64,000 bases of DNA from the NCBI GenBank assembly GCA_020634515.1, contig JACKBL010000001.1, positions 145,268 through 209,267 on the forward strand. The letters are read 5' to 3'. This DNA is from Ardenticatenales bacterium (lineage in GTDB: Bacteria; Chloroflexota; Anaerolineae; Promineifilales; Promineifilaceae). Of this stretch, positions 1 to 64,000 are shown piece after piece. The notes beneath the pieces were generated by a model that was not told where the DNA came from, searched no databases, and saw only the letters and a program-made list of their open reading frames with translations. Position 1 is the first letter of the stretch, and each line of letters begins with the position of its first letter. Position numbers and translations under genes: made by a program.

Positions 1-2
1 GC

Positions 3-725
3 GGCAAACGCGCCGTTTGCGCCGGGCCGGGCAACCCCCCGGTCGTCGTGGATGAAACCGCGGATATTGAGCAGGCGGGGCGGGACATCGTCATTGGTGG
101 CTCCTTCGACAACAACATCGTCTGCACCACGGAAAAAGAAACACTCGCCGTGGATGCCATCTGCGACGACCTGATCCAGGCCATGACGCGCCACGGGGCG
201 GTGCGCCTCAATCGCTGGCAGTTTGACCGCCTCTGGCGCGCCGTCATCGTCACGGATCGCGGTCCGGGCAAGTACGCGGACATGAACAAGGCCTTCATTG
301 GCAAGAATGCCGCCGTGCTGCTGGCGGAAATCGGCATCAGCGCCGGCCCCGAAGTGCGCCAGATAGTGGCCGAAGTGGACAAAACCCATCCCGCCGTCTG
401 GTCAGAGCAGATGATGCCCATTATGCCCGTCGTGCGCGTCGCCAACGCGGATGAGGCCATTGATCTGGCCGTGGCCGCCGAACATGGCTTCCGCCACACG
501 GCCGTGATGCACTCGAAGAATCTGGACAACCTCAGCCGCATGGCGCGCGAGATCAATTGCAGCATTTTTGTGAAGAACGGGCCTTGCCTGGCGGGACTGG
601 GGTATGGGGGCGAAGGGTACTGCTCGTTTACGATTGCCAGCCCCACCGGCGAAGGGCTGACGGGGCCGCGCAGTTTTAGCCGCTTGCGCCGCTGTACGCT
701 GGTGGATTCTTTTCGGATCGTCTGA
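3..725 (+). CDS. Acylating aldehyde dehydrogenase of BMC type (PduP/EutE-like), C-terminal part; the 5' end lies upstream of the window
   Basis: Frame is open from the window start. Translation ...GNPPVVVDETADIEQAGRDIVIGGSFDNNIVCTTEKE...MMPIMPVVRVANADEAI...CSIFVKNGPCLAGLGYGGEGYCSFTIASPTGEGLT parallels the C-terminal region of PduP/EutE CoA-acylating aldehyde dehydrogenases. It is followed directly by BMC shell genes. Confidence 0.85.
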   Translation, partial: GKRAVCAGPGNPPVVVDETADIEQAGRDIVIGGSFDNNIVCTTEKETLAVDAICDDLIQAMTRHGAVRLNRWQFDRLWRAVIVTDRGPGKYADMNKAFIGKNAAVLLAEIGISAGPEVRQIVAEVDKTHPAVWSEQMMPIMPVVRVANADEAIDLAVAAEHGFRHTAVMHSKNLDNLSRMAREINCSIFVKNGPCLAGLGYGGEGYCSFTIASPTGEGLTGPRSFSRLRRCTLVDSFRIV

Positions 726-731
726 CGTTTT

Positions 732-1316
732 ATGGATTTTCCCGCCCTGGCTCTTCTGGAGTTTAGTAGTATTGCTGCCGGCATTGCCGCTGGTGATGCG
801 ATGGTCAAACATGCGCCCGTGGCCGCCATCCAGACGGGAACCGTGCAGCCCGGCCATTACCTCGTGCTGGTGACGGGGGATGTGGCTTCCGTGGAGGAGG
901 CAGTGAAGGCAGGGCAAGAAATGGGGCGGGAGACGCTGCGGGACCAGGTGTTTTTGCCCAATGTGCATCCCGACGTGGTGCGGGCGCTGGGTGGGCAACG
1001 CCAGGTGCCGGCAGGGGATGCGTTGGGGATTGTGGAAACGGTGGCGGTAGCGGCGGCGATTGGGGCGGGAGATGCCGGCATCAAAGGCGCCGAAGTTGAC
1101 CTCATTCAAATCCGCCTGGCCGATGGTCTTGGCGGCAAAGGCCTCGTCTTCTTCACCGGCCTCGTCTCCGACGTAGAAGCCGCCGTGGAGATCGCCGCCA
1201 CCGCCGCCCAACCACACCTGCTGCGCCAGGTCGTCATCTCCCAACTCCACCCCGACATGCGCCCCAACGTCCATCTCGGCCGCTTCGGCGGCCATTTCGA
1301 CTGGAACCAGGCCTGA
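732..1316 (+). CDS. BMC shell protein with tandem BMC domains (BMC-T)
   Basis: Two Pfam00936-like BMC domains: ALALLEFSSIAAGIAAGDAMVKHAPV... and ALGIVETVAVAAAIGAGDAGIKGAEV.... It sits 7 nt after the aldehyde dehydrogenase stop. Confidence 0.8.
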   Translation: MDFPALALLEFSSIAAGIAAGDAMVKHAPVAAIQTGTVQPGHYLVLVTGDVASVEEAVKAGQEMGRETLRDQVFLPNVHPDVVRALGGQRQVPAGDALGIVETVAVAAAIGAGDAGIKGAEVDLIQIRLADGLGGKGLVFFTGLVSDVEAAVEIAATAAQPHLLRQVVISQLHPDMRPNVHLGRFGGHFDWNQA

Positions 1317-1318
1317 CT

Positions 1319-1594
1319 ATGCAACTCGCGCGCGTCATTGGAACCGTGGTCGCCACGCAGCAGTACGACGGGCTGCGCGGCATCAAATTCCTCATCGTTC
1401 AACCCCTCAACAAACAGCGCCAGCCCACGGGCGAGCCGGTGGTGGCCGCCGACGCCACCGCCCAGGCCGGCCCCGACGAACTTGTCTTTATCGTCGGCAG
1501 CCGCGAAGCCGCCCAGGCCCTGCCCATCACCTTCGTCCCCGTGGACCACGCCATCGTGGGCATCGTGGACGATGTCATGTTGGCGCAACGGTAG
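1319..1594 (+). CDS. BMC vertex protein (BMC-P, EutN/CcmL/PduN family)
   Basis: 91 aa. MQLARVIGTVVATQQYDG..KFLIVQPL is the typical EutN/CcmL N-terminus. It follows BMC-T with a 2-nt gap. Confidence 0.85.
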   Translation: MQLARVIGTVVATQQYDGLRGIKFLIVQPLNKQRQPTGEPVVAADATAQAGPDELVFIVGSREAAQALPITFVPVDHAIVGIVDDVMLAQR

Positions 1595-1624
1595 GGGGCG
1601 GAAGGCGGAAACCAGTTTTCAGAT

Positions 1625-1760
1625 TGGTTCATTCTCCCGGAATGGTAATACTAAAGCTCTCTGGAGATTGGACCAATTCCACGTGCTCAATGGCCATTTT
1701 CACCGGAAAAAATTGGTCCAATCTGGCTTAGCAATTACCGGGAATGAACCAATCTTCGGG
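1625..1760. repeat. Family A dispersed repeat (CCAGATTGGACCAATT core, two inverted copies)
   Basis: ctctggagattggaccaattcc ... aaaattggtccaatctggcttagc. The same ~45-110 bp element recurs at 5768, 13436, 33905, 39790 and 57885. Its core ATTGGaCCAAT is itself a 5-1-5 palindrome. Confidence 0.6.
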
Positions 1761-1768
1761 GAAAAGCG

Positions 1769-2896
1769 ATGTACCAACCCGCCTTGTTTGAAGATTTCGC
1801 GCCGGATATACCTACCGAGGGTATCAAGTATGCTGGATCGAAATTGAAACTCATCCCACATATTCTGCAACTTGCCAGGCAGGTTGAAGCCAGAACCTTA
1901 CTAGATGCGTTTTCAGGAACAACACGTGTTTCGCAGGCATTCGCAAAACTTGGGTACCAGGTTGTTTGCAATGACATCGCTGTCTGGTCCGAAATGTTTG
2001 GCTATGCCTACTTATGCAGCAAAAAAAAGCCCGAGGATTACCAGCCGTTGATTGATCATTTGAATGCGGTGGCTCCCATTGATGGATGGTTTACACAGCA
2101 CTATGGGGGTTTTGCGAATGGCGGGCGTGCTTTGCAGCAAGACGGGCTGAAGAAACCCTGGCAAATTCATAATACACGGAAACTCGATGGTATTCGACAA
2201 GAAATAGAGGCGCTTAACCTTGATGTTATAGACAAAGCAGTTGCACTTTCCAGCTTGATGTTGGCGCTAGATCAGGTGGACAATACGCTCGGGCATTTTG
2301 TATCCTATCTCCGGGATTGGTCTCCGCGTTCGTATAACAACTTGCTGCTCAAAGTGCCGGCAATTTTCTCAACGCCTTGCGAACACCAAGTCTTTCGCAA
2401 AGATGTATTCGAGTTGCTGCCGTATATTGCCGTGGATATTGCCTATCTTGACCCACCCTATGGTTCAAATAATGACAAAATGCCTCCTTCACGGGTGCGT
2501 TACGCTTCGTATTACCATATTTGGACAAGTGTATGTCTGTTTGATGAGCCGGAATTGTTCGGAAAAGCGAAGCGGCGGAAAGACTCCTCTGACAAAGTTT
2601 CTGCGTCTATCTTCGAGGAATTCCGTCAGGACGAGCAAGGAAAATACATTGCGGTCAGCGCAATCGAAAGACTCATTCGTCATATCCAGGCACGCTGGAT
2701 AATCCTGTCGTATAGTTCGGGAGGACGGGCTACTGCTGAAGAGCTTAATAATGTCATTTCCCGTAATGGCAAACTGCTTCAAGTCCTGGAAATTGATTAC
2801 AAAAGCAACGTCATGACCGGTATGAAATGGACACATGAGTGGCTACGAGATATTGAAACCCCTAACCGCGAGTTTTTGTTCCTCATAGAAAAATAG
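1769..2896 (+). CDS. N6-adenine DNA methyltransferase, Dam/D12 class (alpha-type), in a low-GC islet
   Basis: 375 aa. N-terminal IKYAGSKLKLIP and LLDAFSGTTRVSQAF (motif I variant), then the YLDPPYGSNND DPPY motif, in the order typical of Dam/M.EcoRV-like MTases. Local GC is about 45% against about 62% for the window. Confidence 0.85.
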   Translation: MYQPALFEDFAPDIPTEGIKYAGSKLKLIPHILQLARQVEARTLLDAFSGTTRVSQAFAKLGYQVVCNDIAVWSEMFGYAYLCSKKKPEDYQPLIDHLNAVAPIDGWFTQHYGGFANGGRALQQDGLKKPWQIHNTRKLDGIRQEIEALNLDVIDKAVALSSLMLALDQVDNTLGHFVSYLRDWSPRSYNNLLLKVPAIFSTPCEHQVFRKDVFELLPYIAVDIAYLDPPYGSNNDKMPPSRVRYASYYHIWTSVCLFDEPELFGKAKRRKDSSDKVSASIFEEFRQDEQGKYIAVSAIERLIRHIQARWIILSYSSGGRATAEELNNVISRNGKLLQVLEIDYKSNVMTGMKWTHEWLRDIETPNREFLFLIEK

Positions 2897-3034
2897 CCAT
2901 TCCTCCCACATTTTGAATAATGTTGCGCGGCGAGTATTTGAATCCAATGGGGGTTAAATATGAGTAGAGTTGGAAAGGAGACGAAGAAATATAGTGAGCA
3001 GCCACCACAATCCATATAAGGACCTCGAGTCTGG

Positions 3035-3138
3035 CGAAATCCACATATGGTGATCGGAGTCGAGGCTTTAGCCGGGTCAAACCCCATATGTGGGCCGGCT
3101 GAAGCCTCCACTCCCAAAAACGCCAGAGTCCAGTAAGG
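3035..3138. repeat. Family C MITE-like element (~100 bp, CTGGCG...CGCCAG termini)
   Basis: ctggcgaaatccacatatggtgatcggagtcgaggctttagccgggtcaaaccccatatgtgggccggctgaagcctccactcccaaaaacgccag. Near-identical copies occur at 46313-46412 (inverted) and 62950-63068. The internal inverted repeat is ggagtcgaggctttagccgg/ccggctgaagcctccactcc. Confidence 0.7.
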
Positions 3139-3599
3139 ACTTCACTAACCGCCTTAAATTGTTGATTAGCAAGCACCCCGATCTCATCGTAACGACCCTC
3201 AGTAACATCTTTACAATGCGTTTCATAGGCAACAAAACGCACGGCGATTTACATGTTGGAAAAGAGTTATATCGGGCAAAATCACAAGAAGAGGACGTGA
3301 CATTTTCAACGAACTTACAGAAGCCAAGTTTCCGCTTAGTAACCGCCCGTGTAACTACTAACGGTTATTTGGTCAAATCTGCGCTTTAATTGTGTTCATC
3401 TCCTCAATCAGGCACGAAGTGTTAACGGGTTACGGAAGGAAATCATCTTTCAATTGAAGTGTACTACTATCATGTCAAGGGTATTTTGATGGGAAACCAT
3501 GGGTCAATTCGCTGAATTGACCGGACAAGACAGCGTCTTGTCCTACGGCGCGTTTCCATCGTTTTATGCTTGACGGCACACTACTTTGAGTGGAGAAGA

Positions 3600-3866
3600 A
3601 TGTACATTGGCGAAGTGACAGGCACGGTGGTGGCGACGATTAAGCATGAGGCCTTTTTTGGGCGCAAGCTGTTACTGGTGGACCGCCTGGGGCTGGATGG
3701 ACAGCCCACGGGGGAGTATGATATTTGCGTGGATGTGGTGCAGGCGGGGGTGGGGGATCGCGTTTTGGTGCTGGATGAGGGGAATGGCGCGCGCCAGATT
3801 TTGGGGCGCAAGGTTGCGCCCGTGCGCGCCGTGATCGTGGGGGTGGTGGACGCGGTTGATCTGTAG
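3600..3866 (+). CDS. BMC vertex protein (BMC-P, EutN/CcmL/PduN family), second copy
   Basis: MYIGEVTGTVVATIKHEAFFGRKLLLVDRL...VRAVIVGVVDAVDL. ATG at 3600 is preceded by GGAGAAG. The longer track ORF from 3570 lacks an RBS. Confidence 0.8.
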   Translation: MYIGEVTGTVVATIKHEAFFGRKLLLVDRLGLDGQPTGEYDICVDVVQAGVGDRVLVLDEGNGARQILGRKVAPVRAVIVGVVDAVDL

Positions 3867-3941
3867 GCGGGAAAAACCGGAAAAACCGGGTTTTTTGAAA
3901 CCGGGAAAAACCGGGTTTTTTGGAAAAACCCGGTTTTTGGG
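3867..3941. terminator. Bidirectional terminator-like palindromic cluster (AAAAACCGGGTTTTT / AAAAACCCGGTTTTT units)
   Basis: Three mutually complementary units lie between convergent genes (BMC-P ends 3866, mutase ends 3942). A related pair occurs at 55905-56000. Confidence 0.6.
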
Positions 3942-5594
3942 TTACTGATTGGGCCGGTATTCTCCCCACAGGTCGCGTAGGGTGTGGCAGATTTCGCCCA
4001 GGGTGACGTTGTTTTCCACGCAGGCGAGGAAGTGGGGCATCAGGTTTTGGTCGGATTCGGCGGCGGCGCGCAGGTCGGCGCGGAGGGCGGTGACGCGCTC
4101 CTGGTCGCGGCTGGCGCGCAACTGGGCCAGACGCGCCCGCTGTTCGGCTTCCACGGCGGGGTCGATGCGCAGGATTTGTGGCGTGTGCGTTTCCGCTTCC
4201 ACGAATTCATTGACGCCGACGACGATTTCTTGCCGGCATTCCATATCCCGCTGAAACTGATAAGCCGCGTCTTCGATTTCGTGATGGGCGTAGCCGGACT
4301 CAATCGCCGTTAGCATCCCTCCCATCTCGTCAATGTCGCGCAAATACGCCGCCGCCCGATTCTCCAACTCATCCGTGAGATATTCAATGAAATAAGAACC
4401 GGCCAGTGGGTCCACCGTGTCGGCGGCGCCGCTTTCGTTGGCGATGATCTGCTGCGTGCGCAGGGCCACGCGCACCGCCTGCTCCGTGGGCAACCCCAGG
4501 GCCTCATCCATGCTGTTGGTGTGCAGGCTTTGCGTGCCGCCCAGAACGGCGGCCAGCGCCTGCGTGGTGACGCGGACGATGTTGTTTTCCGGCTGCTGCG
4601 CCGTGAGCGTGCTGCCGGCCGTTTGCGTGTGGAAGCGTAACTGCCAGCTTTTGGGATTTTTGGCCCCAAAGCGGTGGCGCATGATTTTGGCCCAGAGGCG
4701 GCGGGCGGCGCGGAACTTGGCGACTTCCTCCAGGAAGTTGTTGTGGACGTTGAAGAAGAAGGAAATCTGGTCGGCGAAGTCATCCACATCCAGGCCGGCA
4801 TCGAGGGCGGCCTGCACGTAGGCGATGCCGTCGCCGAGGGTGAAGGCGACCTCTTGCGCGGCGGTGCTGCCGGCTTCGCGGATGTGGTAGCCGGAGACGG
4901 AAATGGTGTTCCAGCGGGGGACTTCGCGGGCGCAGTAGTCGAAGATGTCGGTGATCAGGCGCATGGAGGGGCGCGGGGGGAAGATGTAGGTTCCGCGCGC
5001 CAGGTACTCCTTGAGGATGTCGTTTTGGATGGTGCCGCGTAGTTTGGTGAAGGGGACGCCTTGTTGCCGCGCCACGGCCAGGACCATGGCCAGGAGAATG
5101 CCGGCAGGCGCGTTAATCGTCATGCTAATGCTCACCCTGTCCAGGGGAATGCCGTCCAGCAGCGTACACATGTCCTGCAAGCTGGAAATGCTCACGCCCA
5201 CTTTGCCCACTTCCCCCATGGCCATGGGGTCGTCGGCGTCGTAGCCGATTTGCGTGGGCAGGTCGAAAGCGACGGAGAGGCCCATCTGGCCGCGGCTGAG
5301 GAGGTATTTGTAGCGTTCGTTGGATTCGGCGGCGGTGCCGAAGCCGGCATACTGGCGCATGGTCCAGAATCGCCCGCGGTACATGGTGGGTTGGACGCCG
5401 CGGGTGAAGGGGTATTCACCGGGAAAGCCAAGTTTGTCGGCGTAGTCGGGGTCGGGGTCGGGGGGGAGGTAAAGGCGGTTGACGGAAATGCCGGCACGTG
5501 TCTCAAACGACTCTTTCCGCTCAGGGAAACGCCGTAACACCGGCTGCAAAGTTTCCTGCTCCCACTGCTGTTTCTGCTCTTCTAACGTCATCAT
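3942..5594 (-). CDS. Methylmalonyl-CoA mutase, catalytic (N-terminal/large) subunit without B12-binding domain
   Basis: Long match to the MCM catalytic domain, e.g. [61 protein letters not shown]. Start taken at MMTLEEQ (ATG 5594) with an AAGGA RBS. The track ORF extends to 5732. Confidence 0.9.
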
Positions 5595-5767
5595 CTTATC
5601 CTTCAGGTGCGTTGGCGCCGTGGCGCGCCCGGCGCGAAGAACGCACGGCGCAAGAATTATCGAGGCTATTGTAGTAGAGAGTGGGAAAATGAGGCAACGC
5701 CAAATGCCACGCCCCCGCCTGACAAACGTCACGCACCGGGAATAAGTTCAGTCCCAATGGAAAGTAA

Positions 5768-5832
5768 CCCTAACCGCCAGGTCAAATTGGTCCAATCTCC
5801 AGAGCGCGTTAGTAGTTACAAGTAACCGCTGC
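5768..5832. repeat. Family A repeat (half copy)
   Basis: aaattggtccaatctccagagcgcgttagtagttacaagtaaccgctgcc. Confidence 0.5.
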
Positions 5833-5859
5833 CATGCCGTGTACTCTAATCCTCTCAAA

Positions 5860-5880
5860 TGTCATGGGAAAATCATGACA
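5860..5880. promoter_or_regulatory. Perfect 7-7-7 palindrome TGTCATG-N7-CATGACA upstream of the cytochrome gene (candidate operator)
   Basis: tgtcatgggaaaatcatgaca lies about 130 nt upstream of the 6012 start, in a divergent intergenic region. Confidence 0.35.
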
Positions 5881-6011
5881 TCCGTCAGTTGCACAGCCAT
5901 TCCTCATCCTTTACGGTGCGAGAATATGGGAAATGTGCTTTCCACCGTTGTCCCCCCGTCAAGTTATTTCTCCTGCTCGTTTGAACCGGGCGCTAGCTGG
6001 GAGGTCCCCTC

Positions 6012-8831: not shown

Positions 8832-8836
8832 CGCGC

Positions 8837-10738: not shown

Positions 10739-10744
10739 AGGTGG

Positions 10745-55059: not shown

Positions 55060-55069
55060 GGCGTGACTA

Positions 55070-55894: not shown

Positions 55895-55904
55895 GGGTAC
55901 TCCT

Positions 55905-57326: not shown

Positions 57327-57687
57327 GTTGATCCTGGTTCCCCCGCGATTCCCAGCCCAGCGTTTTGCCTGTGGCTGGCGTGATGTTGGATGCCAGCCGC
57401 GAATATGGTCAATCTCGGTAGAGCCAGTTTATTGGGCACGAATGACCGAATTGGGCCAGCGTTCGCGCGGCTGTGGTCATTCGGGTCCGCTTTGCGTCAG
57501 GGCGTGGGGTGGTGTCACACATTATGCTGCCCACAACCAAATGGGTGAAACTCATGCCGGATTTTGCGTCTAATGAGATTGGTGATCGAATGGCGCAAGT
57601 CTACTCGCGCCGACGGAGTCCGTCAATAAACAATGGGAACTCAGTACTAGGCATGGGACATCATGGCGCGCCGGGCACTCGCAGACG

Positions 57688-57716
57688 AAAAAGCCCTGCG
57701 ATGCGCAGGGCTTTTT
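57688..57716. terminator. Rho-independent terminator (AAAAAGCCCTGCG-atg-CGCAGGGCTTTTT), bidirectional
   Basis: Perfect 8-bp GC stem flanked by A-run and T-run, in a 680-bp non-coding region. Confidence 0.6.
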
Positions 57717-57884
57717 CAGGGGGACAGATAAAAAGGAGGAATGTAAATTGAGTGTCAATATTAGCCAGCCTGCTCTTTGTGCGTCCAGACCGGCACCATA
57801 GGGAGAACGTGACCTTAGTATAGGCCGTTGTGCCGGCATCCTCAAGAAAGTCTGATACAATCTGTGTGTAAAATGGTTTACAGA

Positions 57885-57995
57885 AAGTAATTGCCAGGCC
57901 AGATTGGACCAATTCTCTCTGGTGAAAATGGTCATGGAGCGCGCGAAATTGGTCCAATCTCCAGAGAGCGTTAGTCGTTACGACAGAAATACGAG
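57885..57995. repeat. Family A repeat (full copy)
   Basis: gccaggccagattggaccaattctctctggtgaaaatggtcatggagcgcgcgaaattggtccaatctccagagagcgttagtcgttacgac. Confidence 0.6.
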
Positions 57996-58011
57996 TCGGT
58001 AGCAGCCAACA

Positions 58012-58839
58012 ATGGAAACACGCTGTCCCAATTGTCAACAACCTTTGCTCTCCGGCGATACTGCCTGCTGGCAGTGTGGCTGGCAACTGGCGGAACCCGT
58101 TCCCGCGGCGGCGGATGCGACGGTGCTGTCGGCCCCGCCCGCGCGCGCCCAGGTTCCCGCGCTTTGGATTTACGCTGCTTTGACCGCTTTCCTCGTGATT
58201 ATGGCCGGCATTTTGCTGCATCAACTCGGAAAACAACCGTTGGTGCAGGTGTCCGCCGGGGGGCGAATGCCGGCAGACTGGCAGCGGGTGACCACGTATG
58301 GGCGCACGCTCACGCTGGACCTGCCGCCGGGATGGACGTGGCTGGACCAGGAAGATCCATCGCAGGCGGATGCTTTTGCCGCTTTGCTGGCGCGGCGGCA
58401 GGGGTTGCTGTCGTTGACCTATCCCCTGGGGCGGCAAGACCCGAATGCGGCGCTCATATTCGCCGCCGCGCCCGCCGCCGTCATTGATCTGGCGGCGGAG
58501 CCGGTGACGCTGGTGGTGATTCGCAGCCCTGTTTTGAGCCGGTTGTCGGCGGAGGCGGCGCTGGCGACGGTGGCGGAGGCGGATGTGGAACTGGTAGACG
58601 GGCGGCAGGTTCCCAATTACGATAAAACGCATACCAGTTTTTTGCTGGAGATGGATGTGGCCGGCGTAGGGCGAGTAAGATGCCGGCAACAATTCTTCCA
58701 CGACGAACCGGACAGCCTGCTCCTGGCTGTCTGTGGCCACCCGCAACAATTCCGCTTTTACGCCCAACAAGTGGAGGAAATCCTCGCCACCGTCCAGCGA
58801 CTACACCCCCAGGCATTCCATCATCGCCCACCCAGTTGA
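58012..58839 (+). CDS. Hypothetical membrane-anchored protein with N-terminal zinc ribbon
   Basis: CPNCQQ...CWQCGW zinc ribbon, one TM helix (LWIYAALTAFLVIMAGILL), and a ~200-aa Ala-rich extracytoplasmic domain. Confidence 0.6.
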   Translation: METRCPNCQQPLLSGDTACWQCGWQLAEPVPAAADATVLSAPPARAQVPALWIYAALTAFLVIMAGILLHQLGKQPLVQVSAGGRMPADWQRVTTYGRTLTLDLPPGWTWLDQEDPSQADAFAALLARRQGLLSLTYPLGRQDPNAALIFAAAPAAVIDLAAEPVTLVVIRSPVLSRLSAEAALATVAEADVELVDGRQVPNYDKTHTSFLLEMDVAGVGRVRCRQQFFHDEPDSLLLAVCGHPQQFRFYAQQVEEILATVQRLHPQAFHHRPPS

Positions 58840-58874
58840 AAGGTTCACGATGGGTAAGACTACACAGCCTATGC

Positions 58875-58985
58875 GTACATGGTCCAACAAACCTTCCCGG
58901 AAGCTCAATGTCAGGCTAAAAGCGTCTCAAAATGCAGCGGCATTTCGCATGGAAACAGCTTTCGGAAAGATGGGAGTGAGCCGTC
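58875..58985. repeat. Family B hairpin repeat (degenerate copy)
   Basis: caaaccttcccggaagctcaatgtcaggctaaaagcgtctc...aaacagctttcggaaagatggg. Confidence 0.5.
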
Positions 58986-59114
58986 CCACGATGGCATGGC
59001 ATTGGGCATGGCACGAAACCCTGTTTTATCCGCATTTCCGCGTCTTTCTGGCTTCCTTTCCCCAGGTCCATACCCGGCTTGACGCACTCCTGTCCACTCA
59101 GTACAATCCCCCCT

Positions 59115-60086
59115 ATGTCGCAAGAACCTGATGGGCTTAATTTCAATTATGGTGGCCAGGCCGTGATCGAAGGCGTCATGATGCGCGGTTCGCAGGCGCT
59201 GGCCGTTTCCGTACGCAATCCTCATGGCGAGATAGTCACCCACGTCGAACCTTTGAACCAGGCCATCTATGGCAGCAAGATGGCGCGCCTCCCCTTTGCG
59301 CGTGGTCTGACCCTGTTGTGGGATGCGCTGGGGCTGGGCATTAAGGCGCTCATGTTTTCGGCGGAAGTGGCCGTGCCCGAAGAAGAAAAAGCGGACCCGC
59401 AAGGCAAGGCGTTTGAAGGGCCGGTGCAGGTCGGAACGGTCGCCATCTCCCTCGCTTTTGCCATCGGGCTGTTTTTCGTCTTGCCCGTTTTCCTGGCGAG
59501 CCTCATTGAGGGCTGGCTGCATTTGCGCGAGTCGCAGGTTGTCAGCAACCTGATTGAAGGGGGCATCCGCCTGTTAATCCTGGTGGGCTACATCTGGAGC
59601 ATAGGCCTGCTGCCGGACATTCGCCGTTTGTATGGGTATCATGGGGCGGAGCATAAAACGATTAACGCTTATGAGGCAGGCGCGGCGCTCACGCCGGAGT
59701 CTGTGGCCCGTTTTCCGCTGGAGCATCCGCGCTGTGGTACGGCTTTTTTGTTGACGGTGGTGATCGTTTCCATTCTTTTGTACAGTTTTTTCCCGCCGTT
59801 GAACCTGGCGCTGCGTATTGTCTCGCGCCTGTTGTTGCTGCCTGTGGTTGCCGGCATTGCTTACGAGATCATCCGTTTCTCCGCCAAACATCTTGATAAC
59901 GTCTTCATTCGCATCATCATAAAGCCCAACCTGGCTTTGCAGCGGCTGACCACTCGTGAACCAGACCAGACCATGTTGGAAGTCGCCATCACCGCCTTTC
60001 AACAGATGATGGCCCGTGAAAGCGGGACTGTTTACGCAGAACCCGCGCTCGTGCTCGCGGAAACATCAGACGCAACCCCTCGTTAG
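59115..60086 (+). CDS. DUF1385-family membrane protein (YqhQ-like)
   Basis: N-terminal NYGGQAVIEGVMMRG signature of DUF1385, followed by multiple TM helices. Start at MSQEPDG (ATG 59115). Confidence 0.8.
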   Translation: MSQEPDGLNFNYGGQAVIEGVMMRGSQALAVSVRNPHGEIVTHVEPLNQAIYGSKMARLPFARGLTLLWDALGLGIKALMFSAEVAVPEEEKADPQGKAFEGPVQVGTVAISLAFAIGLFFVLPVFLASLIEGWLHLRESQVVSNLIEGGIRLLILVGYIWSIGLLPDIRRLYGYHGAEHKTINAYEAGAALTPESVARFPLEHPRCGTAFLLTVVIVSILLYSFFPPLNLALRIVSRLLLLPVVAGIAYEIIRFSAKHLDNVFIRIIIKPNLALQRLTTREPDQTMLEVAITAFQQMMARESGTVYAEPALVLAETSDATPR

Positions 60087-60382
60087 AATTCATATACCGC
60101 CGGCGCGCCACCCTGCCCCAGAGATGCGGGCAATCTCTCCGCTTTGGTTTCTTGCCCGACTGCGCAGCTTCGCGCAACCGCCGATTTGCGCGTTTCCCGC
60201 GCCGATTGGTCTACCAGTGGCGCGCTGACTCCGCCAGTGTTCGCTGCATGCCGTATCGCAGCTTGACGCGCACCCGCTCGCCGGGGGTGTGCTTACTATC
60301 CCCGTCACCATATCGGAGATGCGTCGGGCATCCCGGCATGGCAATGTGGGCGATCAGGTCCTGCTGAGGTGAAAGGAACAGT

Positions 60383-61024
60383 ATGTCCAGGGGTGAAAAG
60401 CATAATCAGACCGGGTTACAATTTTACGGTGATTGGGAATTGGAGAAAGCGGTAGCCGCTTTTCGTAAAGCGACGGCTGCTGAACCGGATAATCCCGAAT
60501 ATCACCTCAATCTGGCGCGCGCGTTTGCCCGTTCCAGCAGCTTCGACGAGGCGATTCAGGCATTGGGCGAGTACCTGCGCACGGAGACGGACGCCCAACT
60601 CGCCAGCCGCTACGAACGCCTGTTTTCCTCGGCGCTGGATGACGTGGAAAGCGCCCTCATTGAGGGCATGCGCCGGTTGGAGTTATCCATTCAGTACACC
60701 GGCAAGGCGATCCAGATGTGGTTGGAGTATCGCATCACGATTGGGCGGCGGCCGTTGCGCGTGACGAAGCCAGAGTTGTGGGCGGCGGCGCTGGCCTACA
60801 CGATTGTGAAGGTGAATTTCCTGCAACTTAAACTGGGCGCGGTGGCGGCGGCCTTTTCCGTCAGCGAGCGGTCGCTAAAGGAACGGTTTGGTGAACTGGT
60901 GCAGGCTTTGGATTTAATGCCGGCAGATTACCGTTACTTCGTGGGTGATCAAAACCCGCTGGACAAACTCGTAGAAGCGGCGCAGATCATGGAAGAACTG
61001 GACCAGCGCTTCATGGAAGACTGA
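60383..61024 (+). CDS. Hypothetical protein with TPR-like N-terminal helical repeats
   Basis: LQFYGDWELEKAVAAFRKATAAEPDNPEYHLNLARAFARSSSFDEAIQAL is a TPR-like motif. No other family assignment. Confidence 0.55.
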   Translation: MSRGEKHNQTGLQFYGDWELEKAVAAFRKATAAEPDNPEYHLNLARAFARSSSFDEAIQALGEYLRTETDAQLASRYERLFSSALDDVESALIEGMRRLELSIQYTGKAIQMWLEYRITIGRRPLRVTKPELWAAALAYTIVKVNFLQLKLGAVAAAFSVSERSLKERFGELVQALDLMPADYRYFVGDQNPLDKLVEAAQIMEELDQRFMED

Positions 61025-61029
61025 GGAAT

Positions 61030-61435
61030 AATGAGAACATCTTCCCGGAAGCTGTTACCCAGGACTATCGTCTGTGACGAAGCTTCCGGGAAGATCATTG
61101 AGAACATCTTCCCGGAAGCTGTTACCCAGGACTATCGTCTGTGACGAAGCTTCCGGGAAGATCATTGAGAACATCTTCCCGGAAGCTATTACCCAGGACT
61201 ATCATCAGTGATGAAGCTTCCGGGAAGATCATTGAGAACATCTTCCGGAAGATTAGGACTATCATCAGTGACGAAGCTTCCGGGAAGATCATTGAGAACA
61301 TCTTCCCGGAAGCTGTTACCCAGGACTATCGTCTGTGACGAAGCTTCCGGGAAGATCATTGAGAACATCTTCCCGGAAGCTGTTACCCAGGACTATCATC
61401 TGTGATGAAGCTTCCGGGAAGATCTTTTACAGAGG
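61030..61435. repeat. Tandem array of 6 x ~66-bp Family B hairpin units (not CRISPR: no spacers)
   Basis: Unit attgagaacatcttcccggaagctgttacccaggactatcgtctgtgacgaagcttccgggaagatc repeated six times with point variants and one internal deletion in unit 4. Confidence 0.8.
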
Positions 61436-61563
61436 AGTCACCACGCCACTGCGCGACACCACCAACAAACGAAAATAGCGCGGTTGACAGGCGGCGCTTC
61501 TCCCAACTGTCAACTGACCACTACCCACTGTCAACTGACCACCATTTACAAAGGAGTCACTCA

Positions 61564-62505
61564 ATGTTAAACAAAATTGCACTTTATGGCGCGGGCAACG
61601 TCGGCGCTACAACGGGCCACTGGCTGGCGAACAAGGAAGTCGGCGACATCGTCATGTTCGACATTTTTGGGCAGGTGGCTGCCGGCAAAGCCCTCGACCT
61701 CTACGAAGCAGGACCGGCCATCGGCTTTGATTCCCGCATCACCGGCAGCAGCGACGTAAGCATCATCGAAGGCGCGGACGTGGTCGTCGTCACCGCCGGC
61801 GTGCCGCGCAAGAAGGACCCCGTCACCGGCAAATTCCCCAGCCGCGATGAACTGGTGAAGATCAACCAGGACGTGATGACGGTCGTCTCCGAAAACATCA
61901 AGAAGTACGCCCCGGACAGTATCGTTATCGTTGTCACCAACCCACTGGACGCCATGTGCCACGTGATCAAGGAGATCACCGGCTTCCCGCGCGAACGCAT
62001 CATCGGCCAGGCGGGGGCGCTGGATACGGCGCGCTACAAGACCTTCATTGCCATGGAACTGGGCGTGAGCGTGGAAGATGTACACGGCATCGTCCTCGGC
62101 GGGCACGGGGACACGATGGTTCCGCTGCCCCGACATACGTCGGTCGCCGGCATTCCCGTCACCGAACTCATCTCCCCGGAAAAACTGGACGCCATCATCC
62201 AACGCACCGCCAAAGGGGGCGGCGAAATCGTCGGCCTGCTCGGCTACAGCGGCTACTACGCCCCCGCCGCCGGCGCCGCCATCATGGTCGAATCCATCCT
62301 CAAAGACAAAAAGCGCGTCATCCCCTCCGCCATCTACACCCAGGGCGAATACGGCTACCATGACCTCTTCATCGGTCTGCCCGCCGTTCTCGGTCGCCGG
62401 GGCGTGGAACACATCATCGAAATGGACCTGAACGAAACGGAACGCGCCATGCTCGACCACTCCGCCGAAGCGGTCCGCTCGGTCGTGCAAGTGTTAGGCT
62501 ATTAG
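61564..62505 (+). CDS. mdh: Malate dehydrogenase, LDH-like family
   Basis: MLNKIALYGAGNVGATTGHWLA...VVVTAGVPRKK...IVVTNPLDAM...LGGHGDTMVPL... The substrate-specificity Arg (GVPRK) indicates MDH. Very similar to Chloroflexus MDH. AAAGGAG RBS before the ATG. Confidence 0.9.
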   Translation: MLNKIALYGAGNVGATTGHWLANKEVGDIVMFDIFGQVAAGKALDLYEAGPAIGFDSRITGSSDVSIIEGADVVVVTAGVPRKKDPVTGKFPSRDELVKINQDVMTVVSENIKKYAPDSIVIVVTNPLDAMCHVIKEITGFPRERIIGQAGALDTARYKTFIAMELGVSVEDVHGIVLGGHGDTMVPLPRHTSVAGIPVTELISPEKLDAIIQRTAKGGGEIVGLLGYSGYYAPAAGAAIMVESILKDKKRVIPSAIYTQGEYGYHDLFIGLPAVLGRRGVEHIIEMDLNETERAMLDHSAEAVRSVVQVLGY

Positions 62506-62566: not shown

Positions 62567-62920
62567 ATGTCTACTTCGCATCAGGAAATGCCGATTTTTA
62601 CGCGCACTTTTGATTTCCTGACCTGGCTGTTGCCGCAAACGAATCACTTCCCGCGCGCCCATCGGCACACGTTTACACAGCGACTGTTGGAGGCCGCATT
62701 TGATCTGCGAGAACGACTCGAAGAAGCAAATTGGCAGCAGGGCAACGCCCGGCTGCAAAAACTGCAGGAAGCAGATGAAGCCTTATCCAAAGTGCGGCTG
62801 TATCTGCGTCTGGCATATCGCTGGAAGTGGCTCACGCCAGGCCAATACGAACATGCGGCAGCGATGATGACGGAAATCGGGCGCTTACTTGGCGGATGGA
62901 AAAAGAAAACTGGCAGGTAA
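62567..62920 (+). CDS. avd: DGR accessory variability determinant (Avd; four-helix-bundle protein)
   Basis: ...FDFLTWLLPQTNHFPRAHRHTFTQRLLEAAFDLRERLEEA...MTEIGRLLGGWKKKTGR parallels Bordetella phage bAvd (…EVGRILGSWIARVNRKG). It lies upstream of the TR and a DGR-type RT. Start uncertain: ATG 62567 or 62588. Confidence 0.75.
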   Translation: MSTSHQEMPIFTRTFDFLTWLLPQTNHFPRAHRHTFTQRLLEAAFDLRERLEEANWQQGNARLQKLQEADEALSKVRLYLRLAYRWKWLTPGQYEHAAAMMTEIGRLLGGWKKKTGR

Positions 62921-62949
62921 CGGCGTCACTTCACCATACATTATTGATC

Positions 62950-63068
62950 AGGAGCTGGAGTCTGGCGAAAACCACATATGGTGGTCGGAGTCGAGACTTT
63001 AGCCGGATCAAACCGCCATATGTGGGCCGGCTGAAGCCTCCACTCCAAAAACGCCAGTGTCCAGTCAG
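62950..63068. repeat. Family C MITE-like element (third copy) inserted between avd and the DGR template repeat
   Basis: ctggcgaaaaccacatatggtggtcggagtcgagactttagccggatcaaaccgccatatgtgggccggctgaagcctccactccaaaaacgccag. Confidence 0.7.
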
Positions 63069-63089
63069 GAAGTGCAACCTCCAGCCGCT

Positions 63090-63260
63090 CACACCGGCTG
63101 ATGTTGGGGGCAAAACCCATAACGGCTGCTCCGCCCGCAACAGGAACGACCCGCACAACAACTTCAACGACAACAACGGGTTTCGGGTGGCAGTTTCCAC
63201 ACTTCTCCTGCAGGTTGTGTCCCAACCGGAATTGCCTGGCGGGTACGCCTTCCGGGCCGA
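63090..63260 (+). other. Candidate DGR template repeat (TR), AAC-rich, CLec-type
   Basis: ggctgctccgcccgcaacaggaacgacccgcacaacaacttcaacgacaacaacgggtttcgggtggca... In frame it reads GCSARNRNDPHNNFNDNNGFRVAV, the signature of CLec-fold DGR variable regions (…RSANRNRNNPDNRNNNIGFRC…). Boundaries are approximate because no VR is available for alignment. Confidence 0.6.
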
Positions 63261-63389
63261 GGTGAGAAATGGCGGGGTTTTGTCCTGGCCGCGCCCAAAG
63301 CGTCAGCCGCGGGCCGGGCAAATAACAACGGGCCGCGTCTCCCCGGTTCGTCCCTGAGACGCGGCCACTTTTCACAAACCGTGTTGGCT

Positions 63390-63535
63390 CTGCAGAATTT
63401 AAGCGGGAGTGGAGGCTTTAGCAGAATTTAAGCGGGAGTAGAGGCTTTAGCAGAATTTAAGCGGGAGTGGAGGCTTTAGCCGGAACGGTTGCAGAATTTA
63501 AGCGGGAGTGGAGGCTTTAGCCGGAACGGTTGCGA
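63390..63535. repeat. Tandem ~30-bp repeats (GCAGAATTTAAGCGGGAGTGGAGGCTTTAG x4, last two with an 11-bp insert)
   Basis: Direct repeats lie between the TR and the RT start. The GGAGGCTTTAGCCGG core matches the Family C MITE core. Confidence 0.75.
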
Positions 63536-63595
63536 CAGAATCTCCTCTCCGCCCCCCTATCAGGAGATGACCCCACGAGTTCCCCCAAAGCCACC

Positions 63596-64000
63596 TTGTT
63601 TCACGCCCTCTGTAGTTGGGATAACTTGCTCCAGGCTTACCAGCAGGCCAGTCGCCGCAAACGGGGGCGGGGCGATGTGGCCGCCTTTGAATATCGCCTG
63701 GAAGACAACCTGCACGACTTGCAGCAAGAGCTGCGCGCTCGCACTTACACTCCGGGCCGCTACAACAGCTTTTTCATCCACGAACCGAAGCGGCGGCTGA
63801 TCAGCGCGGCGCCGTTTCGGGACCGTGTGGTGCATCACGCCTTGTGTAACGTTATCGAACCGATTTTTGAGCGCGCGTTCATCTACGATTCTTACGCCAA
63901 CCGTGTGGGCAAGGGCACGCACCGCGCCCTGGACCGGGCGCAGCAGTTTGCCCGCCGTTTCCCCTACGTGCTGCAATGCGACTTGCGCCAGTTCTTTCCC
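63596..64000 (+). CDS. DGR-type reverse transcriptase, N-terminal ~135 aa (3' truncated by window end)
   Basis: Frame 2, open to the window end: ...SWDNLLQAYQQASRRKRGRGDVAAFEYRLEDNLHDLQQELRARTYTPGRYNSFFIHEPKRRLISAAPFRDRVVHHALCNVIEPIFERAFIYDSYANRVGKGTHRAL... is collinear with Bordetella phage Brt (WENLLDAY...KRR...[31 protein letters not shown]...YTYACRPDKGTHAGV). No ATG/GTG in frame after the upstream stop at 63518; TTG 63596 or TTG 63530 are the possible starts. The overlapping track ORF 63489-63800 is in another frame and is rejected. Confidence 0.85.
   Translation, partial: MFHALCSWDNLLQAYQQASRRKRGRGDVAAFEYRLEDNLHDLQQELRARTYTPGRYNSFFIHEPKRRLISAAPFRDRVVHHALCNVIEPIFERAFIYDSYANRVGKGTHRALDRAQQFARRFPYVLQCDLRQFFP

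Follow-up and report, generated by a model that had tools for sequence, protein, structure and literature searches.

The exact 8-base palindrome TGCCGGCA occurs 72 times (about 1.1 per kb) in the 64-kb stretch of DNA analysed here (the window), and behaves like a HIP1-type element with a new sequence in a Promineifilaceae-like clade of Chloroflexota. It has been spread by point substitution, and not by repeat insertion, through the genome of this small clade, and it is imposed via synonymous codon choice, which shows a drive acting at the DNA level. An unexpected result was that GC and AT skew both invert at each copy. This flip in strand composition points to the sites as starts of a DNA repair or recombination reaction. 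The data, all drawn from metagenome assemblies, comprised the window of about 64 kb and some 50 kb of sequence from relatives.

Abundance and placement of the palindrome

Dinucleotide-preserving shuffles of the window gave 3.4 +/- 1.8 copies of TGCCGGCA, with a maximum of 8, and Markov models predicted 2.5 (order 2), 4.65 (order 3) and 7.75 (order 4), all far below the 72 observed. When all 8-mers of the window were ranked, TGCCGGCA came first; the next palindrome by frequency, CGCCGGCG, had 17 copies versus about 15 expected. The 10-mer ATGCCGGCAT was found in 15 exact copies versus 0.16 expected from such shuffles, none of which contained more than one. The preliminary description had put these numbers at about 14 copies of the 10-mer and more than 45 of the 8-mer, and the full counts bear out both excesses.

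The sites are located within predicted genes in 67 cases (32 in + strand genes and 35 in - strand genes) and between genes in the remaining five, in agreement with the earlier statement that the motif occurs in coding regions of both orientations and in intergenic DNA. They are carried by 36 different and unrelated genes, which rules out a single repeated gene family as the source of the enrichment. All three codon phases are used, namely nnT GCC GGC Ann (phase I below), nTG CCG GCA (phase II) and TGC CGG CAn (phase III). In the following description, each position is an exact TGCCGGCA match, and "full" indicates that the copy is part of ATGCCGGCAT.

In the first part of the window, CDS 732-1316(+) bears copies at 776..783 (I), 1006..1013 (II) and 1073..1080 (I, full), and the acquired D12 methyltransferase gene 1769-2896(+) bears one at 2355..2362 (II). 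They are followed by 4231..4238 (III), 5099..5106 (I) and 5489..5496 (I) in CDS 3942-5732(-), by 6482..6489 (I), 7319..7326 (I) and 8564..8571 (I, full) in CDS 6012-8831(+), and by five phase I copies in CDS 8837-10738(-), at 8914..8921 (full), 9070..9077, 9139..9146, 9670..9677 and 10585..10592. CDS 10962-12299(-) contains 11487..11494 (II), CDS 12253-12873(-) contains 12777..12784 (I, full) and 12805..12812 (II), CDS 13543-15108(-) contains 14226..14233 (I) and 14506..14513 (II), and CDS 15089-16636(-) contains 15893..15900 (II). The copy at 16701..16708 is intergenic. CDS 17621-19519(-) carries 18685..18692 (I, full) and 18922..18929 (I), while CDS 19844-21790(+) carries 19853..19860 (III), 20823..20830 (II, full), 20995..21002 (I), 21310..21317 (I) and 21733..21740 (I). 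Two phase II copies, 21964..21971 and 22651..22658, are found in CDS 21774-22844(+), one at 23186..23193 (III, full) in CDS 22904-23341(+), and one at 25298..25305 (full) is intergenic. The position of the copy at 25518..25525 (II), in CDS 25322-25564(+), is common to the relatives L207 and L209.

The RelA/SpoT gene 26565-28880(+) has a copy at 28120..28127 (II), and the Tex gene 28895-31027(+) has four, at 28969..28976 (I), 29718..29725 (II), 30388..30395 (I) and 30706..30713 (I, full). Further downstream are 32754..32761 (II) in CDS 31098-32903(-), the intergenic 32966..32973, and 35361..35368 (I) in CDS 34726-35472(+). CDS 35685-37271(-) bears 35707..35714 (III), 35970..35977 (II, full) and 36260..36267 (I); CDS 37338-38945(-) bears 37446..37453 (II) and 38892..38899 (II, full). 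Single copies occur at 39110..39117 (II) in CDS 38942-39664(-), 40889..40896 (I, full) in CDS 40773-41333(-), 41392..41399 (II) in CDS 41254-41820(-) and, between genes, at 42551..42558 (full). CDS 44003-44860(+) carries 44139..44146 (II), 44350..44357 (I), 44476..44483 (I, full) and 44653..44660 (I).

The remaining copies are 45867..45874 (I) in CDS 45535-46308(+), 47033..47040 (I) in CDS 46467-47549(-), 49022..49029 (II) in CDS 47510-49339(-), then 51580..51587 (I), 52151..52158 (II) and 52675..52682 (I) in CDS 50999-52852(-), 53281..53288 (I) in CDS 52922-53386(-), 53875..53882 (II) in CDS 53383-54093(-), 54948..54955 (I, full) and 55086..55093 (I) in CDS 54451-55134(-), 55357..55364 (I) in CDS 55070-55972(-), and the intergenic 57831..57838. 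CDS 58012-58839(+) contains 58268..58275 (II) and 58681..58688 (III), CDS 59079-60086(+) contains 59849..59856 (I), CDS 60383-61024(+) contains 60918..60925 (II), and CDS 61402-62505(+) contains 61680..61687 (I).

Among the 110 peptide contexts able to encode TGCCGGCA, 68 (62%) do so versus 5.0 (5%) expected, even at the cost of the rare alanine codon GCA (9%). The compatible peptides are themselves about 2-fold enriched, with 42 [LMV]PA versus 21.9 expected, 68 AG[IMTNKSR] versus 44.1 and 6 CR[HQ] versus 0.9. The palindrome is often extended to (A)ATGCCGGCAT(T), and the information content drops to about 0 past +/-2 nt, with no longer repeat in the flanks. No hairpin was detected at the sites (mirror complementarity of 0.271 versus 0.265 in the control). 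The spacing is more even than random, as the largest gap is 2.6 kb, where random placement gives a median of 4.1 kb (P 0.005), and the CV is 0.785 (P 0.02). One-off variants of the transition type are depleted (10 versus 27.8 expected).

TGCCGGCA is also the top 8-mer in two relatives with 79-80% Tex identity, where its densities are 19 per 22 kb and 10 per 12 kb, and it is absent from a relative with 71% identity and from 80 more distant loci. Its positions are conserved between species in 8/17 and 5/12 cases (P 7e-4 and 0.013), 4-5 times more than those of control 8-mers (about 10-13%), against a background of only about 51% identity at fourfold sites.

Strand composition between sites

The skew forms a sawtooth over all 71 inter-site intervals (776..61687), in which the + strand is C/A-rich immediately after each site and G/T-rich immediately before the next. 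The 25 nt leading up to a site have a GC3 skew of +0.54, and the 25 nt that follow it one of -0.39. When the intervals were divided into deciles, GC3 skew rose from -0.24 in the first to +0.42 in the last, and AT3 skew went from +0.18 to -0.30. The inversion has a permutation z of 8-10 (8.4-9.8) and is present in both halves of the window, and a logistic fit with one parameter gave a dlnL of 274 over 12,461 GC3 positions. Genes of either strand show the same pattern, which is much weaker at the first and second codon positions. It requires the exact 8-mer (one-mismatch variants, z 0.1), is strongest at the 10-mer ATGCCGGCAT, and has a length scale of about 20 nt plus 300-800 nt. It was replicated in the relatives L207 (z 4.0-4.7) and L209 (z 2.1).

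Polarised synonymous substitutions of the C>T and A>G types, taken together, were more frequent on the strand whose 3' end is toward the nearer site (0.143 per base) than on the opposite strand (0.106; P 2.5e-5), in a parsimony analysis that is near saturation and not independent of the equilibrium composition. C<->G transversions are likewise asymmetric relative to the sites.

Possible origin of the sawtooth

The preliminary description had listed a restriction-modification bias, a repair-linked bias and a nucleoid-protein site as possible causes. The sawtooth favours repair or recombination over both a passive nucleoid-protein site and a restriction target, and suggests 5'->3' strand removal from the sites, via nick-directed repair or Chi-like resection. 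Cytosine and adenine deaminate much faster in single-stranded DNA, and the polarity proposed here is based on this property. One DNA strand would be opened at each copy of TGCCGGCA, and tens to several hundred nucleotides of the strand that leads 5'->3' away from the site would be removed; the complementary strand, with its 3' end toward the site, would stay single-stranded until copied. Its exposed bases would deaminate (C>T, A>G), leaving over evolutionary time a G+T excess 5' of every site on each strand, seen as the sawtooth between sites. Since the site is palindromic, either strand could be opened, and the flanks would be mirror images. Simple deamination offers no explanation for the asymmetry of the C<->G transversions.

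The most likely reaction would be a nick-directed long-patch excision repair of the mismatch type, with the palindrome as strand-entry signal, probably after its methylation as in Elhai's proposal for HIP elements. Selection to keep every base close enough to an entry site, and a repair-driven ratchet converting near-cognate sequences to TGCCGGCA, would together account for the density of about 1 per kb, for the even and conserved placement of the sites and for the shortage of one-off variants. Chi-like resection and 3'-first uptake of single strands predict the same polarity, and the sequence data fit them equally well. Against nick-directed repair stands the lack of a sawtooth in E. coli at GATC (434 sites, z -1.8) and at the Vsr site CCWGG (z -2.1), so the model requires a strand choice set by geometry. 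We know of no organism in which such a choice is documented, and GATC is, to our knowledge, the only proven nick-directed mismatch-repair site. The explanation as a whole, a HIP-class palindrome with strand opening and removal from the sites and repair entry, is tentatively preferred, at somewhat less than even odds.

No partner enzyme for TGCCGGCA (methyltransferase or nickase) was found. The only DNA methyltransferase of the window, D12 (1769-2896(+)), is a mobile, acquired gene and does not occur together with the motif.

Comparison with known systems

The HIP class has been described in cyanobacteria (Elhai 2015, PMC4390886; Xu 2018, PMC5861425), and a role as repair entry site, probably after methylation, was proposed for it (Elhai 2015, PMC4390886). 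The HIP1-type behaviour suggested in the preliminary description was supported by the exactness and density of the palindromic octamer, its dispersal through unrelated genes in every frame via synonymous codon choice, the conservation of its sites between species and their even spacing. As that description had supposed, no earlier report of this palindrome was found in the literature searched. HIP1 on cyanobacterial plasmids shows a skew signal of the same sign, but only a weak one. Among published motifs, the nearest is the rCCGGy "alternative HIP" of Oscillatoria PCC 10802, whose top 8-mer, CACCGGCA, has the half-site CCGGCA in common with TGCCGGCA.

Abundance, placement and coding effect of the palindrome

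The 8-base palindrome TGCCGGCA is the commonest of all 8-mers in the window. It occurs in 72 exact copies in 64 kb (1.1 per kb), compared with 3.4 ± 1.8 expected from 100 shuffles, none of which gave more than 8. Markov models predict 2.5 (order 2), 4.65 (order 3) and 7.75 (order 4) copies, and the observed count exceeds the expected one 15- to 28-fold with shuffles or Markov orders 2-3. The 10-mer extension ATGCCGGCAT is present in 15 exact copies, while dinucleotide-preserving shuffles give 0.16. The second palindrome by count in the window, CGCCGGCG, has 17 copies, which is its expectation. The preliminary description had reported about 14 perfect 10-mers and more than 45 8-mers; both figures were slightly low and the observation was correct. 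In the comparison with third-order Markov chains proposed there, the count within the window lies far above expectation. The analysis covered about 64 kb of the source genome, 7.8 kb upstream of it and about 47 kb from two relatives, all of them metagenome assemblies.

In the window, 54 genes were called by a codon-usage model, cross-checked against database gene calls on the same DNA and annotated with Pfam. The gene content is that of an ordinary chromosome, including RelA/SpoT, Tex, methylmalonyl-CoA mutase, acyl-CoA carboxylase, 2-oxoacid:ferredoxin oxidoreductases and a microcompartment operon, among others; no Rfam families or tRNAs were found in the window. Sixty-seven of the 72 sites (93%) are genic and are spread over 36 different genes, with 32 in + strand genes and 35 in - strand genes, and the other five are intergenic. 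The occurrence in coding regions of both orientations and in intergenic DNA had thus been rightly described, and no single gene family, the alternative raised at that time, lies behind the enrichment, the 36 genes being unrelated. The genic sites are read as nnT GCC GGC Ann (38 sites), nTG CCG GCA (24 sites) and TGC CGG CAn (5 sites).

Alignment of the 72 sites shows an A/T preference at two positions on each side, roughly (A)A-TGCCGGCA-T(T), with an information content of about 0 beyond ±2 nt. The mirror-image complementarity of the flanks is 0.271, compared with 0.265 in shifted controls. Since there is neither flank information nor mirror complementarity, the sites are not the cores of a longer repeat or hairpin. 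A dispersed repeat of the REP/BIME/MITE type was rejected because most sites are genic and lack flank conservation and extended complementarity, and a restriction-modification target was rejected because TGCCGGCA is enriched, not avoided. The spacing of the sites is more even than random (CV 0.785, P = 0.02): the largest gap measures 2,602 nt, while random placement has a median of 4,069 (P = 0.005), and gaps shorter than 200 nt number 8, with 14.4 expected.

The palindrome is imposed at the DNA level. Among 110 peptide contexts compatible with the motif, 68 (62%) encode TGCCGGCA, compared with 5.0 expected from the genes' own codon usage. The protein sequence itself is bent toward TGCCGGCA: in comparison with shuffled proteins, [LMV]PA peptides number 42 (21.9 expected), AG[IMTNKSR] peptides 68 (44.1) and CR[HQ] peptides 6 (0.9), and control peptides with permuted order show no enrichment in the window proteins. 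One-off variants, i.e. 8-mers one mismatch away from the motif, are depleted in the window when they differ by a transition (10 versus 27.8 expected; 7 versus 16.5 for T>C at position 1) and are near expectation when they differ by a transversion (38 versus 49).

An artefact of codon usage, of a common peptide motif, of a repeated gene family or of a dispersed repeat could be suspected here, as Ala and Gly are preferentially encoded by GCC and GGC in the window genes (49% and 54%) and Ala-Gly is a frequent dipeptide. However, codon usage accounts for 5 of the 68 contexts, and the second reading frame is built on the rare codon GCA, which makes up 9% of the alanine codons. The sites are spread over 36 unrelated genes of either strand and occupy three frames, with flanks devoid of similarity; Markov orders 3-4 give just 5-8 copies; and the motif is missing in relatives of similar GC content and codon usage. 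The Markov, flank, gene-spread and codon results already refute the artefact, which is left with practically no probability.

Strand asymmetry around the sites

On the + strand, the DNA is G-rich 5' of each site and C-rich 3' of it. GC skew is +0.32 over the 10 nt preceding the site and -0.19 over the mirrored 10 nt on its other side, and a contrast between the flanks persists to 200-300 nt from the site. This flank statistic is 9 SD off random positions, and nothing is seen at other GC-rich palindromes. At third codon positions, GC skew (GC3) reaches +0.54 over the 25 nt that precede the site and -0.39 over the 25 nt that follow it. The effect is far weaker at codon positions 1 and 2 and identical in + and - strand genes; a transcription-linked skew was rejected because genes of both strands show the same pattern. 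The AT skew shifts too, T exceeding A before the site and A exceeding T after it.

Between consecutive sites, the GC3 skew follows a climb that was called monotonic, with decile values of -0.24, -0.10, -0.13, -0.06, +0.01, +0.14, +0.19, +0.27, +0.33 and +0.42, and the AT3 skew goes from +0.18 down to -0.30. The resulting sawtooth, inverted at each site, still rises by 0.277 after the 15 nt beside each site are dropped (z 8.4, 200 random placements), and the step is found in both halves of the window (z 8.0 and 5.3). It is largest at full 10-mers and is missing at one-mismatch variants (z 0.1), so that the exact 8-mer is required. For 12,461 G/C third positions, a one-parameter logistic model gave a lnL gain of 274. 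The decay is fitted by a single exponential with a lambda of 300-600 nt, and best overall by two exponentials of about 20 nt and about 800 nt. The sawtooth was replicated in L207 (z 4.0-4.7), a Promineifilaceae relative sharing the motif, and more weakly in L209, the second motif-sharing relative (sawtooth z 1.1, step z 2.1). None was found in L210/L211, from a relative with 71% Tex identity. Priming of Okazaki fragments at the motif was also rejected: according to our own derivation, the lagging template would be exposed longest just after the priming site, which would make the sawtooth fall on either replichore; the one found here rises. Literature searches on HIP1 and GC skew, and on a motif of this kind in Chloroflexota, gave nothing relevant, and the HIP1 papers of Elhai 2015 (PMC4390886) and Xu 2018 (PMC5861425) do not mention skew.

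Substitutions were polarised by three-species parsimony at synonymous third positions of eight genes, and the half-interval before a site was compared with that after it. With divergence near saturation and rates that restate composition at compositional equilibrium, the rates per base before and after the site were 0.132 and 0.102 for C>T (P 0.03), 0.247 and 0.147 for A>G (P 0.0017), 0.155 and 0.231 for T>C (P 0.004), and 0.056 and 0.034 for C>G (P 0.014). When C>T and A>G are pooled, the rate is 0.143 on the strand with its 3' end toward the nearer site and 0.106 on the other strand (OR 1.41, P 2.5e-5). This analysis shows an ongoing process and the substitution types by which it is carried, and is not an independent proof. 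C>T and A>G are deamination changes that build up on single-stranded DNA, as on the heavy strand of vertebrate mtDNA. Strain-level SNPs, with 3-24 differences per contig, were too few for polarising mutations.

Distribution among relatives and the methyltransferase island

The Tex protein encoded in the window is identical to that of GCA_020432705.1 (labelled Anaerolineales bacterium) and of several ENA assemblies. The nearest named relative of the host is Ca. Promineifilaceae, which belongs to Chloroflexota, Ardenticatenia according to the NCBI taxonomy. TGCCGGCA is the top 8-mer in two assemblies with 79-80% Tex identity, GCA_054683925.1 (Ca. Promineifilaceae bacterium; 19 copies in 22 kb) and GCA_964507675.1 (10 copies in 12 kb). 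The next relative (71% Tex identity) has 2 copies in 22 kb, and 80 loci of GTDB species representatives, mostly Chloroflexota with Tex identity of 67% or less, have 0-1 copies per 10 kb, compared with 11.3 in the window. Being present in two close relatives and missing in remoter ones, the element marks a narrow clade. The 22 kb of L210/L211 are full of CCGG/GGCC words (GCCGGC 108, CGGCCG 137, CCGGCCGG 30) at 4-12 times their first-order expectation, yet these are accounted for by a third-order Markov model (108 GCCGGC versus 123 predicted). CCGGCCGG was accordingly rejected as a separate iterated palindrome and put down to low-order composition bias, as Markov-3 fits its counts and the sawtooth is absent.

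In codon alignments of 8-11 orthologous genes, sites are found at the identical position in 8 of 17 cases in L207 and 5 of 12 in L209. The corresponding share is 13% among the remaining 8-mers and about 10% among those matched for phase and GC content (P = 7e-4 and 0.013), an excess of 4-5-fold for TGCCGGCA over the controls, and fourfold-degenerate positions are just 50-52% identical in the same comparisons. Where a site is not shared, the partner mostly differs at 2-5 positions. Local synteny between L207 and the window is otherwise kept, except that L207 carries an AAA-ATPase-like and PDDEXK_9 gene after Tex (12134-13687, - strand) where the window has a Band-7 gene.

Mild enrichments were observed in two unrelated lineages, L043 (Ca. 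Coneutiohabitans thermophilus; 7 TGCCGGCA in 22 kb, together with ten CGCCGGCA) and L031 (a KSB1 MAG; 6 in 22 kb), and no skew step was found at TGCCGGCA in either of them (z -0.2 and 0.5). A metagenome scan for paired 10-mers gave mostly chance pairs among the matches listed, and a viral scan for phages mimicking the motif gave just unrelated local clusters and tandem coding repeats. Among the viral contigs, a low-GC IMG/VR family (about 40% GC) has 7-8 TGCCGGCA within about 3-4 kb, where almost none are expected (L235 3174-6394, L256 5877-9097 and L244 515-3735), including a triplet spaced by 22-24 nt; these clusters may be operator or packaging sites. Another viral contig, L236 (5.4 kb, 61% GC), bears 12 dispersed TGCCGGCA with a different flank signature (TGCCGGCAC).

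The METHYLTRANSFERASE lead concerns an ORF at 1769-2896 (+ strand), which encodes an intact D12-class adenine DNA methyltransferase with the motifs DAFSGTT and DPPY, the only DNA methyltransferase found in the window. It lies in an island (1595-3569) of 46% GC inserted between two EutN genes of the microcompartment operon, whose GC content is 62-64%. The island also holds a remnant at 3135-3332 (+ strand), a truncated partner ORF whose intact form has 282 aa and no Pfam match. Homologues of the methyltransferase, 70-78% identical, are found in archaea, CPR bacteria, Acidobacteria, Proteobacteria and Chloroflexota. On three unrelated contigs (L222, L223 and L224), the 282-aa ORF always precedes and overlaps the methyltransferase gene in an intact cassette, which suggests a mobile two-gene restriction-modification system. 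These contigs have 1, 1 and 0 TGCCGGCA per 21 kb, and a role of the window methyltransferase as partner enzyme is thus not supported. Judged from its sequence, the island is most probably a decaying imported restriction-modification cassette and not the partner of the palindrome. It is the sole restriction-modification-like cassette in the window and appears unrelated to the motif.

Other assemblies break at the D12 gene: locus L217 stops within it, and apart from that the exact protein appears only on contigs no longer than 1.4 kb, so that the island may be variable among strains. The microcompartment locus (window 1-3866 and L217 5613-9441) comprises an aldehyde dehydrogenase, BMC-domain shell proteins, EutN/CcmL vertex proteins and a CsoS1D-like shell protein, and is adjoined by DeoC and RpiB genes. 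At the other end of the window, the region 62510-62920 (+ strand) encodes a bAvd-like protein (PF22296, E 3e-19), the accessory variability determinant of diversity-generating retroelements (DGR), and is followed by an ORF without Pfam match that runs off the window end (63530-64000, + strand). A DGR may start there.

Candidate mechanisms and comparison with known systems

From polarity and length scale alone, the simplest reading would be that, on both sides of each palindrome, the strand pointing its 3' end at the site is repeatedly single-stranded. The exposed strand would be what is left once its complement has been removed 5' to 3' from the site, and tracts reaching from the site to a variable end hundreds of nucleotides away would generate a near-linear sawtooth. 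Three processes would share this polarity, namely nick-directed long-patch excision repair, Chi-like resection by RecBCD/AddAB, and 3'-first entry of transforming single strands. Nick-directed long-patch repair, with the palindrome as entry point and with the added requirement that geometry sets the choice of strand, would rank first among them, because the very large skew fits a pathway handling most mismatches, because the density of one site per kb and the even spacing would be accounted for, and because a ratchet that removes one-off variants would be supplied. Nick-directed mismatch repair at HIPs is a hypothetical proposal of Elhai 2015 (PMC4390886). As a tentative generalisation, HIP-type palindromes (TGCCGGCA and cyanobacterial HIP1) could be the strand-entry signals of an uncharacterised, MutH-independent repair or recombination pathway in which removal always proceeds 5' to 3' outward and tract geometry is recorded as a genome-wide sawtooth. 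If so, this pathway would handle enough mismatches or lesions to print its tract geometry genome-wide, the Chloroflexota clade would offer its clearest natural read-out, and the 30-year-old question of HIP1 would receive a direct, testable mechanism.

The pattern could also be due to a palindromic Chi-like signal, at which a RecBCD/AddAB-type helicase-nuclease arriving from either side would switch and spare the 3'-ended strand. A long-lived 3' single-stranded tail 5' of the site would then gather deamination damage or, alternatively, be favoured by biased gene conversion between genome copies. This would predict the exact polarity, with an excess of G+T and of C>T/A>G on the strand with its 3' end at the site, and a length scale of hundreds of nucleotides. 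The strict need for an exact 8-mer is typical of Chi recognition, and Chi sites themselves rank among the most strongly over-represented octamers of their genomes. Chi-like stimulation of recombination by HIP1 was reported by Kamoku & Nielsen 2024. However, a 15-20-fold enrichment with rewritten protein sequence is beyond anything known for Chi, no skew step was found at Chi in 100 kb of E. coli, though with 23 sites only, and double-strand-break repair would need to be so frequent that it dominates synonymous sites (GC3 skew up to 0.5). Moreover, no Chi sequence known to us is a palindrome; they are asymmetric and are co-oriented with replication. A Chi-like signal is therefore considered rather doubtful. 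We consider it quite improbable that TGCCGGCA is a DNA uptake sequence for natural transformation, as lately proposed for HIP1, spread and kept by molecular drive, with single strands entering 3'-first from motif-defined ends and carrying the damage signature. Its frequency of about 1 per kb, its genic location in all frames and the peptide distortion are like those of Neisseria DUS and Haemophilus USS, it is confined to a narrow clade, and HIP1 raises transformation efficiency and correlates in abundance with the uptake machinery. Known uptake sequences, on the other hand, are not palindromic, an uptake bias alone predicts no sawtooth of strand composition, fragment ends would need to fall at the motif, and transformation would need a frequency sufficient to produce GC3 skews of 0.4-0.5.

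Methyltransferase-linked biased repair, of the Vsr type or according to Elhai's ratchet, could turn near-cognates into TGCCGGCA and leave the palindrome as a functionless by-product. The depletion of transition one-off variants speaks for it, GCCGGC is a known m5C methyltransferase target, rCCGGy is over-represented in the DmtD-carrying Oscillatoria PCC 10802, and alternative HIPs have been argued to be possible epiphenomena (Elhai 2015, PMC4390886). However, very-short-patch tracts (<20 nt) cannot yield a skew gradient of 300-800 nt, and CCWGG of E. coli, the model Vsr site, has no gradient. The even spacing, the lack of long gaps and the 4-5-fold excess of positional conservation point to coverage being important, although they could be mimicked by a saturating ratchet. 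Such a by-product is unlikely; if its ratchet acted via long-patch repair nicked at the site, it would merge with nick-directed long-patch repair, the preferred reading, and differ only on selection for density. A binding site for a nucleoid-associated or chromosome-organising protein, without strand processing, would suit an exact palindrome recognised by a dimer and sites that are evenly spaced and conserved in position, and such a role was argued for HIP1 from its periodicity (Xu 2018, PMC5861425). It appears very improbable, as a passive binder leaves unexplained a pattern that is strand-asymmetric, synonymous, independent of orientation and hundreds of nucleotides long.

The function of HIPs has been a question since the first description of HIP1 in the 1990s, and the evidence for the current proposals (mismatch-repair signal, nucleoid organiser, Chi-like site and uptake sequence) is indirect. 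That an independent instance of another sequence exists outside the cyanobacteria shows that the phenomenon is no cyanobacterial peculiarity. It comes with a strong and highly specific footprint, in which both strand composition and the spectrum of substitutions are inverted at each exact copy, over hundreds of nucleotides. This footprint, which cannot be left by a passive binding site, fixes the polarity of the underlying reaction; the HIP hypotheses thus become separable with existing data, namely whole genomes, methylomes and polarised SNPs, and with simple experiments. In such genomes, the distance to the nearest palindrome sets a large share of synonymous-site composition, which bears on codon-usage models, skew-based origin prediction and the detection of horizontal transfer.

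The preliminary description had likened TGCCGGCA to HIP1, and a hyper-abundant, exact, dispersed and conserved palindrome acting at the DNA level is indeed what was found. Like HIP1, it is an exact palindromic octamer that lies within genes in every frame and often extends to a palindromic 10-mer, its sites are conserved above control octamers, and it is neither an RNA nor a peptide motif. The density of HIP1 in cyanobacteria is roughly 0.3-2.7 per kb (Elhai 2015, PMC4390886; Xu 2018, PMC5861425). HIP1 is GCGATCGC, with a CGATCG/GATC core, while TGCCGGCA has a GCCGGC core and belongs to Chloroflexota. One-off variants of HIP1 (HIP1*) are abundant and conserved, especially at positions 1 and 8, whereas those of TGCCGGCA are at or below expectation, and HIP1 is accompanied by the cognate orphan methyltransferases DmtA and DmtC. 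The element is thus a member of the HIP class in the sense of Elhai 2015, and not HIP1 proper. In Picosynechococcus PCC 7002, HIP1 on plasmid pAQ7 (287 sites; L212, L214-L216) shows a sawtooth of the same sign, with a rise of 0.078 (z 5.4, margins excluded) and a step of z 3.3, and pAQ6 (L261-L262) gives z 1.6. None is detectable on pANL (L218; z 0.6-1.8) or pSYSM (L213; about 0). Pooled over 509 plasmid sites, the HIP1 step has t 3.5, compared with |t| of at most 1.8 for 11 control palindromes. The sawtooth at TGCCGGCA is about 3-7 times stronger. No report of the weak HIP1 sawtooth was found in the HIP1 literature searched, and the parallel, drawn from plasmids alone, is suggestive but weak.

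By its sequence, the nearest published relative of the element appears to be the alternative HIP rCCGGy of Oscillatoria PCC 10802. It has the same CCGG core and includes GCCGGC, and its top 8-mer CACCGGCA and extension tGCCGGTg/cACCGGCa have the half-site TGCCGG/CCGGCA in common with TGCCGGCA. It has been tied to a DmtD-type m5C methylase and to hypothetical nick-directed mismatch repair (Elhai 2015, PMC4390886). However, rCCGGy is a degenerate hexamer, mostly in the non-palindromic forms ACCGGC/GCCGGT and extended in 33% of cases, while TGCCGGCA is a sharp, fully palindromic octamer in a host of another phylum.

The DUS of Neisseria and the USS of Pasteurellaceae are asymmetric 9-12-mers preferred by the competence machinery, and occur as short exact words about once per kb, in genes and on both strands, with codon and peptide distortion and within a narrow lineage. 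To our knowledge, they are not palindromes, their orientation matters, and no motif-anchored skew sawtooth has been described for them. TGCCGGCA shares with them the frequency of about 1 per kb, the genic location, the peptide distortion and the narrow lineage, but is palindromic. Chi is an exact-match octamer, modestly enriched, that marks where the preservation of a 3'-ended single strand begins. Its over-representation is shared by TGCCGGCA, and this preservation of the 3' strand is the polarity that would apply at TGCCGGCA, which, unlike the asymmetric and replication-co-oriented Chi, is its own reverse complement and has no orientation.

The GATC/MutH and CCWGG/Dcm-Vsr systems of E. coli also use palindromic methylation sites at which a repair nick is made, and the HIP model of Elhai 2015 (PMC4390886) was built by analogy with them. 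Their sites differ in having 4-5 bp and a frequency near chance, and MutH chooses the strand by hemimethylation, not by geometry. No positive sawtooth was found at GATC (434 sites, z -1.8) or CCWGG (306 sites, z -2.1) in E. coli. In vertebrate mtDNA, C>T and A>G accumulate on the single-stranded strand according to exposure time and give near-linear gradients. The same pair of substitutions carries the asymmetry at TGCCGGCA, but mtDNA has one gradient per genome, set from replication origins, where the present DNA has about a thousand short, palindrome-anchored gradients per Mb.
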